Shown piece after piece: positions 1,365 through 1,510 of a DNA stretch of 4,470 nt. The notes beneath the pieces are model-generated. The model was given only the letters and a program-made list of their open reading frames with translations, was not told the origin of the DNA and did not search any database. The stretch's first letter is position 1. Each line of letters begins with the position of its first letter. A program made the position numbers and the translations under genes. This stretch comes from a virus (lineage: Duplodnaviria; Heunggongvirae; Uroviricota; Caudoviricetes): the IMG/VR virus record IMGVR_UViG_2698536618_000011, positions 1-4,470 of that record, one strand, 5' to 3'.

Positions 1365-1405
1365 AAAGAAAAACAAAAAAGCCGCCAGTGTCACCCACTG
1401 ACGGC
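1365..1405 (-). terminator. strong minus-strand rho-independent terminator about 40-56 nt upstream of the holin start
   Basis: On the minus strand, GCCGUCAGUG pairs with CACUGGCGGC (10 bp including one G-U) around a GGUGA loop, followed by UUUUUUGUUUUUCUUU. The orientation is unambiguous: the plus strand has an A-tract before the stem and a C/A mismatch within it. Confidence 0.6.
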
Positions 1406-1483
1406 CAACTCCGGGAGCCGTGATTATGGCATTCAGGCTCTGCTAAAAATGCCAGATAACATTCCGGCCACCCCCTGATTCAG

Positions 1484-1510
1484 GTTATAAATGACACAAT
1501 ATCTTGACAA
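1484..1510 (-). promoter_or_regulatory. candidate sigma70-like promoter on the minus strand (-35 TTGTCA at 1510..1505, -10 TATAAC at 1489..1484, 15-bp spacer)
   Basis: Both hexamers are 5/6 matches to consensus but the spacer is short. A transcript from here would run about 100 nt into the 1365-1405 terminator, a layout like a lambdoid late promoter with its short leader and terminator. Confidence 0.25.

Follow-up and report, generated by a model that had tools for sequence, protein, structure and literature searches.

A conserved predicted terminator before the phage 21-type holin gene and antisense small RNA genes in the late region of a lambdoid prophage

The window, which is the whole 4,470-nt stretch of viral DNA analysed here, covers the late region of an Stx-type lambdoid prophage. 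All of its genes are on the minus strand, and it raises the question of what is encoded in the spacer that separates the sialate O-acetylesterase gene nanS-p from the holin gene (Table 1). A promoter-like element and a strong terminator had been noticed in this spacer, and the original prediction read them either as a late promoter with a short terminated leader RNA downstream of nanS-p, or as a terminator that keeps nanS-p transcription out of the lysis genes as long as no antiterminator acts. In the following we analyze the terminator, the small RNA genes that surround it, and the position of the late promoter in closely related phages.

The spacer is widespread and almost invariant. Compared with the spacer of prophage Sp12 in E. 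coli O157:H7 Sakai, 500 of 501 positions are identical, and the identity to E2348/69 prophage PP2, phage 434 and phage H-19B is approximately 97%. The 176 nt upstream of the holin gene were found at 2,850 places in 699 of 5,426 complete E. coli genomes (median four per genome), with at least 95% identity at all of these places, and in 28 phage records as well.

Two observations concern the genes upstream of the spacer. PasD2 is 172 nt long and ends 87 nt before the nanS-p ATG, and by homology with PasD2 the real span of the STnc100/PasD-like sRNA in the window is probably from about 3785 to 3614, with its end probably formed by the strong minus-strand terminator at 3639-3621, slightly offset from the Rfam match. 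This match was the only one obtained when the whole window was searched against Rfam at a permissive threshold, and none fell within the interval 1365-1510. The nanS-p gene carries an in-frame deletion of 32 amino acids near codon 75, directly after the GQSNA block, when compared with Sakai ECs_2262, to which it is 93% identical outside the deletion; the deletion may alter the esterase activity.

Table 1 Features of the window, listed in the order of late transcription.
Feature	Position	Strand	Evidence and remarks
TerB (PF05099)	4063 to beyond 4470	-	First in transcription order
DUF3927	3902-4066	-	Second in transcription order
STnc100/PasD-like sRNA	3664-3836	-	Rfam RF02076, 108 bits
nanS-p sialate O-acetylesterase, DUF1737-SASA-DUF6645	1773-3527	-	Pfam
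nanS-p/holin spacer, 448 nt	Between nanS-p stop and holin ATG 1324		
Second sRNA module, EcOnc52 homologue (~1708-1772)	1672-1772	+	TTGACA at 1672-1677
PasA-like sRNA, EcOnc51 homologue, predicted Hfq-binding	1539-1623	+	Terminator stem 1581-1615, T-tract to 1623
Predicted promoter of the PasA-like sRNA	1504-1533	+	TTGACA (1504-1509), 18 nt with TG at 1525-1526, CAGAAA (1528-1533)
Promoter-like match	1484-1510	-	TTGTCA (1510-1505)-15-TATAAC (1489-1484); relaxed scan; weak
Weak hairpin with AUUUUUA	1451-1468	-	Scan; fold -9.7 kcal/mol, z -1.5
Predicted terminator, stem-loop GGCCGUCAGUG-GGUGA-CACUGGCGGCU	1380-1406	-	Scan, fold, covariation, annotation in phage 434 (OL657226)
Predicted terminator, U-tract UUUUUGUUUU	1370-1379	-	First U pairs with the stem base
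Leader hairpin with Shine-Dalgarno GGAG (1339-1336)	1335-1356	-	Fold; 9 bp, just before ATG 1324
Class II (phage 21 S type) pinholin, 68 aa	1118-1324	-	Pfam PF04971, 112 bits
DUF1327/YdfR	769-1113	-	After the holin in transcription order
Lysozyme	185-718	-	Last in transcription order

A terminator before the holin gene

When the minus strand was scanned, a stem of 11 pairs (seven of them G-C) with a 5-nt loop was found at 1406-1380, followed by TTTTTGTTTT. The RNA folds with -22.3 kcal/mol compared with -12.4 +/- 2.7 kcal/mol for shuffled versions (z -3.7), and none of 200 shuffles was as stable. The G+C-rich stem-loop is followed directly, and on the transcribed strand, by the U-rich tract UUUUUUGUUUUU with U6 immediately after the 11-bp stem, and the U-tract and the stem end 45 and 55 nt, respectively, before the holin ATG. 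From its sequence the element at 1406-1370 is thus predicted to be an intrinsic (Rho-independent) terminator, and the claim of a minus-strand terminator 40-56 nt before the holin gene holds, as judged from the length and stability of the stem and from the conservation and covariation described below.

Conservation was analyzed in 80 IMG/VR loci encoding this holin family, 78 of which had enough upstream sequence. A hairpin is present 46-57 nt before the holin ATG in every one of the 78 loci, and it is followed by a T-tract (at least five T in the next 8 nt) in 68; in the other 10 loci (class D) the stem is kept and the T-tract is degraded. The loci fall into at least seven sequence classes with differing upstream genes, and the type found in the window (class A) accounts for 21 loci only. 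In the Stx2-like classes the stop codon of a small ORF lies approximately 84 nt before the holin gene with the hairpin directly after it, leaving no room for a promoter. The Stx2a phages share the holin and diverge from its start codon; a simple scan of one Stx2a-type locus did not find a strict terminator, and in the wider survey the Stx2a-type classes were seen to carry the homologous hairpin, in some cases with weaker T-tracts.

Covariation was quantified in an alignment of 30 distinct versions, compared between classes via the holin; with the near-identity of the class A copies, the evidence is of the between-class kind only. The two arms of the stem can pair in 96.3% of the cells of the alignment, compared with 31-70% when the partners are slid, and two-sided changes were seen in five of the 10 stem pairs, e.g. 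from G-C to A-U at columns 14/32 and 10/38. The covariation score was 0.407, compared with 0.296 for shuffled alignments, and was reached by none of 500 shuffles. Taken together, conservation and covariation in the related loci place the terminator well beyond chance, and it appears to belong to the phage 21-type lysis cassette, whatever lies upstream.

Between the terminator and the holin gene a further hairpin containing the Shine-Dalgarno sequence is predicted, and the other holin classes have an analogous CUUCCG...CGGGAG leader hairpin; it may take part in the control of start sites in a way reminiscent of the lambda S structure. The start region itself (1324-1336, minus strand) reads ATA CAT CAG ATG in the holin class to which the window, phage 434, H-19B and Sp12 belong, compared with ATG TAC CAG ATG in the other classes. 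The class found in the window is thus without the upstream ATG of the phage 21 dual start, and the 68-aa holin is the only product possible, with no 71-aa antiholin.

Small RNA genes on the opposite strand

The plus strand of the spacer carries two small RNA modules (Table 1). The northern probe used for PasA, GCCAGCACTGACTTTCGGTGGAGAG, is listed in table S6 of PMC8550237 with the notation '> < >', i.e. for an RNA antisense to the late operon. The probe matches the minus strand of the window at 1611-1587, which places the PasA-like RNA on the plus strand, in agreement with this notation. A promoter block consisting of TTGACA, 18 nt with TG, and C/TAGAAA is common to PasA (PP2), PasC (PP5), the window and a class B locus, and according to the alignment it is also conserved in the second module. 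The mapped 5' ends of PasA (743499) and PasC (1290909) are both located approximately 7 nt after the C/TAGAAA hexamer, and in the window the start falls near 1539-1540.

Outside a variable 5' part the PasA alignment is approximately 97% identical. The 5' part of the window copy (approximately 1540-1575) is unlike that of E2348/69 PasA and matches the variant found in H-19B and Sakai; the window copy probably corresponds to the variant called PasA-2 by Zhu et al. These authors (Zhu, Shabalina, Storz; bioRxiv 10.64898/2026.05.13.724894) describe PasA and PasC as adjoining the holin/lysozyme operon and PasD2 as placed across the sialate esterase gene, and the gene order of the window agrees with this description. 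Both the probe site and homology to the PasA terminator are found in the window, in antisense orientation and between the sialate esterase gene and the holin/lysozyme operon. Hfq binding has been seen for the near-identical copy in Sakai Sp12 (EcOnc51, by Hfq CRAC), and PasA of E2348/69 has been detected by northern blot and RIL-seq. The window copy can by homology be assigned to the PasA family of Hfq-binding sRNAs.

The second module ends in a terminator at 1731-1763 with a T-tract to approximately 1771, abutting the nanS-p stop codon, and it is also the 3' end of a 236-nt minor form of PasA. In the Sakai prophage Sp4 (L006, 5490-5640) an IS629 element has replaced everything past the promoter of the second module, including the PasA-like module, and the RNA of the second module (EcOnc52) is still Hfq-bound; since this occurs without the PasA-like module, the second module has its own promoter. 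PasC from E2348/69 PP5 is a hybrid with the promoter and 5' part of PasA and a different terminator that abuts the nanS-p stop codon. A class B locus (L018, 2140-2420) still has the pre-holin terminator, an antisense PasC-like sRNA with TTGACA-18-TAGAAA and the PasD-like terminator, although only a short remnant of nanS-p is left; the RNA elements outlive the protein gene. The multicopy prophage sRNA HnrS (EcOnc10-12) was considered as the element in question and rejected, as it maps approximately 1.7 kb beyond the left end of the window (in Sp12).

Expression across the spacer and the role of the terminator

Expression was evaluated from one RNA-seq data set for uninduced E2348/69, and the figures given are baseMean values. 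The counts were 226 for the ORF after Q, 11,017 for pasD2, 102 for nanS-p and 3,879 for pasA, and they were 3.5 for the holin gene, 3.2 for the lysozyme gene and 1.0 for Rz. Per kb, the late-strand signal of these uninduced cells is thus approximately 3- to 24-fold lower after the spacer than before it. With length normalization the drop is modest, and unstable mRNA or an antisense effect of PasA could also be responsible for it. A late-strand intergenic RNA was seen at 743494-743512 in E2348/69, upstream of the start near 1477 that the promoter-like letters would imply, showing that nanS-p transcripts extend into the spacer.

It was also proposed that nanS-p and TerB are expressed independently of the lysis genes. 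Apart from its basal expression, nanS-p rises with mitomycin C like stx2a (PMC10462455), and with norfloxacin z1466 (nanS-p) belongs to the late phage genes that show the strongest upregulation (PMC8065619). This co-induction of nanS-p with the late genes and stx argues against an expression independent of the late operon, and this part of the original prediction was abandoned.

We consider it likely that the pre-holin hairpin is a guard terminator that keeps stray transcription out of the lysis genes. In a lysogen, ordinary RNA polymerase coming from upstream units, be it from nanS-p, PasD/STnc100, tRNA or toxin promoters or by leak through tR', would stop at 1406-1370 before the holin and endolysin genes, and the terminator would form the 3' end of the nanS-p transcription unit. 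Upon induction, polymerase that has been loaded with Q at the pR' promoter beside the Q gene (see below) would be terminator-resistant and read through 1406-1370 into the lysis genes. The TTGACA sequence at 1504-1509 serves as the -35 hexamer for the PasA-like sRNA, transcribed away from the holin gene and convergent with nanS-p. For both termination in vivo at this site and read-through by Q-modified polymerase we infer from the established biology of the lambdoid phages. Of the two readings proposed at the outset, the favoured one is that the lysis genes are insulated as long as no antiterminator acts, in agreement with the counts of nanS-p and the holin gene in uninduced E2348/69.

A more elaborate reading, which we regard as unlikely, is that the terminator and the convergent PasA/EcOnc52 sRNAs together make up a safety lock on lysis, and/or that a weak divergent promoter at 1510-1484 gives a late-strand RNA of approximately 105 nt. 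Read-through into the holin gene would then be lowered or timed both by head-on transcription of the sRNAs and by base pairing between the abundant sRNAs and the complementary nanS-p 3' UTR or late transcript. If true, the spacer would be a regulatory node for the timing of lysis and not a passive stop signal.

It is quite unlikely that the hairpin is mainly an element of RNA stability or processing, i.e. a protective 3' end of moron mRNAs or a 5' barrier of the lysis mRNA, with termination being incidental. The class D loci, where the covarying stem is kept with a poor T-tract, and the many classes with the hairpin directly after the stop codon of the upstream ORF are in line with such a role, but a canonical T-tract follows the stem directly in most of the loci (68 of 78), and U6 after an 11-bp G+C-rich stem, as in the window, is the textbook signature of a terminator. 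One role does not preclude the other, and from class D it appears that the hairpin may have a further role, e.g. in RNA stabilization or processing, beside that of a guard terminator.

Promoter-like letters and the position of the late promoter

The letters of the sigma70-like promoter that had been pointed out upstream of the terminator are indeed present on the late strand, although the match is weak. A standard promoter scan (spacer of 16-18 nt, T at position 6 of the -10 hexamer) did not report the match at 1510-1484, which was only reported by a relaxed scan with the flag 'noA2T6'; the spacer is 15 nt and there is no T at -7, unlike a strong sigma70 promoter. Furthermore, TTGTCAA is exactly what TTGACAA at 1504-1510, the -35 sequence of the plus-strand sRNA promoter, reads on the minus strand. 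Class B has TTGTCA-15-TATTAT on the late strand just before the hairpin, and in both classes TTGTCA mirrors the TTGACA of the antisense sRNA and the A/T-rich -10-like stretch falls where the upstream element of the antisense promoter would lie. The match at 1510-1484 is probably not a promoter for the late strand.

The same letters could be taken as the promoter of an independent, constitutive and trans-acting sRNA gene at 1477-1370 on the late strand, divergent from PasA and the third sRNA of the island, which we find very unlikely. Besides the weak promoter match, the segment is predicted to form three hairpins and its terminator has the kind of U-tract that is typical for sRNAs bound by Hfq, the region is dense with sRNA genes, and RIL-seq has detected a late-strand RNA from the pasA-holin intergenic region (798 chimeric fragments, non-activating condition). 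However, this intergenic RNA is the second partner in only 3% of its chimeras, unlike sRNAs, and its sole significant chimera maps upstream of the proposed start. Moreover, no late-strand sRNA was called in the spacer in the Sakai Hfq CRAC data, Rfam gave no match, and the segment is found in class A only and offers no sequence variation to test.

The late promoter was located by comparison with near-identical phages. Over the full length the closest genomic match was to strain 2014C-3011, where the prophage is decayed and lacks Q, and Sakai Sp12 was therefore used to locate pR'. In Sp12 the Q gene (PF06323) ends at L007 4883, and directly after it is TTGCAA-17-TATATT with a leader of approximately 70 nt that ends in the terminator AAAACCCGCCCACAAGCGGGUUUUUUU (-16.4 kcal/mol). 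This tR' is followed by three tRNAs, TerB, DUF3927, STnc100, nanS-p, the spacer and the holin gene, and pR'/tR' is approximately 3.7 kb upstream of the holin. Q is located approximately 3.6-3.9 kb upstream in Sp12, phage 434 and E2348/69 PP2, and further away in H-19B. In each case examined a canonical pR' module is found directly after Q, a position which the 1510-1484 candidate does not share. The curated record of phage 434 has a terminator just after its Q82-like Q gene, and all three spacer terminators are annotated as well; in the curated record of phage 21, pR', the Q-binding element, the pause element and tR' come directly after Q21 and are followed by two tRNAs. The leader of the Sp12 pR' (L007 4794-4899, minus strand) gives a weak match to isrK (22.7 bits, against a gathering score of 50 bits), a sub-threshold match which hints that Salmonella IsrK and the leader are related products of late promoters.

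Phage 21 has a separate hairpin of -25.5 kcal/mol (z -4.6) with a U7 run approximately 55 nt before S21. The possibility that the pre-holin terminator is a tR' displaced by moron insertion was rejected, because phage 21 has both tR' and the hairpin before S21.

A spacer with at least 97% identity follows a PF06530 Q gene in H-19B and a PF06323 Q gene in phage 434, Sp12 and PP2, and these two types of Q are unrelated (BLASTP E 0.35). The Q proteins, e.g. those of lambda, 21 and 82, are promoter-specific and act only at their own promoter. One and the same spacer behind unrelated Q families can therefore not be the Q-loading promoter for both, and the candidate module does not co-vary with the Q type as a promoter with its Q-binding element does. 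When the candidate module was compared with the genuine pR' regions of Sp12, PP2 and phage 21, no similarity was found. The true late promoter adjoins Q, several kb upstream.

We find it highly improbable that 1510-1484 is a sigma70 promoter giving a leader of approximately 105 nt that ends at 1370, as a second, antiterminator-controlled late module with which the lysis genes have a late promoter of their own: TTGTCA and TATAAC each agree with the consensus at five of six positions, a high degree of structure is predicted for the RNA (-43.7 kcal/mol, z -2.85), class B has its similar hexamers before the hairpin and the layout is superficially like pR'-6S-tR', but the 15-nt spacer, the -10 without its final T, the mirrored TTGACA in both classes, the lack of similarity to known pR' regions, the unrelated Q families before one spacer with canonical pR'/tR' beside Q, the terminator without promoter room in most holin classes, the co-induction of nanS-p with the late genes, and the list of Hfq-bound sRNAs in Sakai, with no late-strand entry for the spacer, all speak against it. 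The original prediction of a late promoter, short leader and terminator downstream of nanS-p has thus been given up in favour of a guard terminator.

The idea that late operons under the control of Q contain backup terminators is an established one, and tandem late-operon terminators were reportedly described in lambda by Luk and Szybalski in 1983. Like the terminators in the late operons of lambda, 21 and 82, the terminator in the window is placed on the late strand, after Q/pR' and before the lysis genes, and by analogy it would yield only to Q-modified polymerase and leave the lysis genes silent in lysogens. In contrast to tR' of these phages it is not promoter-proximal and does not end a short pR' leader; it is located several kb downstream, after the morons (tRNAs, TerB, nanS-p), and it travels with the holin cassette and not with Q. 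The late-module reading mimics the StxS/6S arrangement, in which a short RNA is made from a constitutive promoter and ends at a terminator. StxS-type leader RNAs start at pR' next to Q (PMC7547250), and the equivalent in Sp12 is at L007 4899-4796, outside the spacer.

The terminator at 45673-45709 in phage 434 (OL657226.1) has the same sequence, with 98% identity over 176 nt, and shares the position before a class II holin and the two opposite-strand terminators, with no substantial difference; in that record it is an annotation alone, without experimental support or function. The published PasA/PasC of E2348/69 and EcOnc51/EcOnc52 of Sakai have their window homologues on the strand opposite to the pre-holin terminator. 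With a terminator that is annotated in GenBank and sRNAs that are published, the region is largely ordinary and already known. Our modest addition is a covarying hairpin with a U-tract that stays constant with phage 21-type holin genes across upstream contexts and Q types.

These results leave the present view of late regulation in lambdoid phages unchanged. A tempting misreading is corrected, as the promoter-like letters belong to the antisense sRNA gene, and in annotation pR' should be placed next to Q and the spacer described as an sRNA island with a guard terminator. A guard terminator would explain how the lysis genes stay silent in lysogens where actively transcribed morons, such as the sialate esterase gene, sRNAs, tRNAs and toxins, are located inside the late operon: it accompanies the holin cassette and should let through only polymerase modified by Q.
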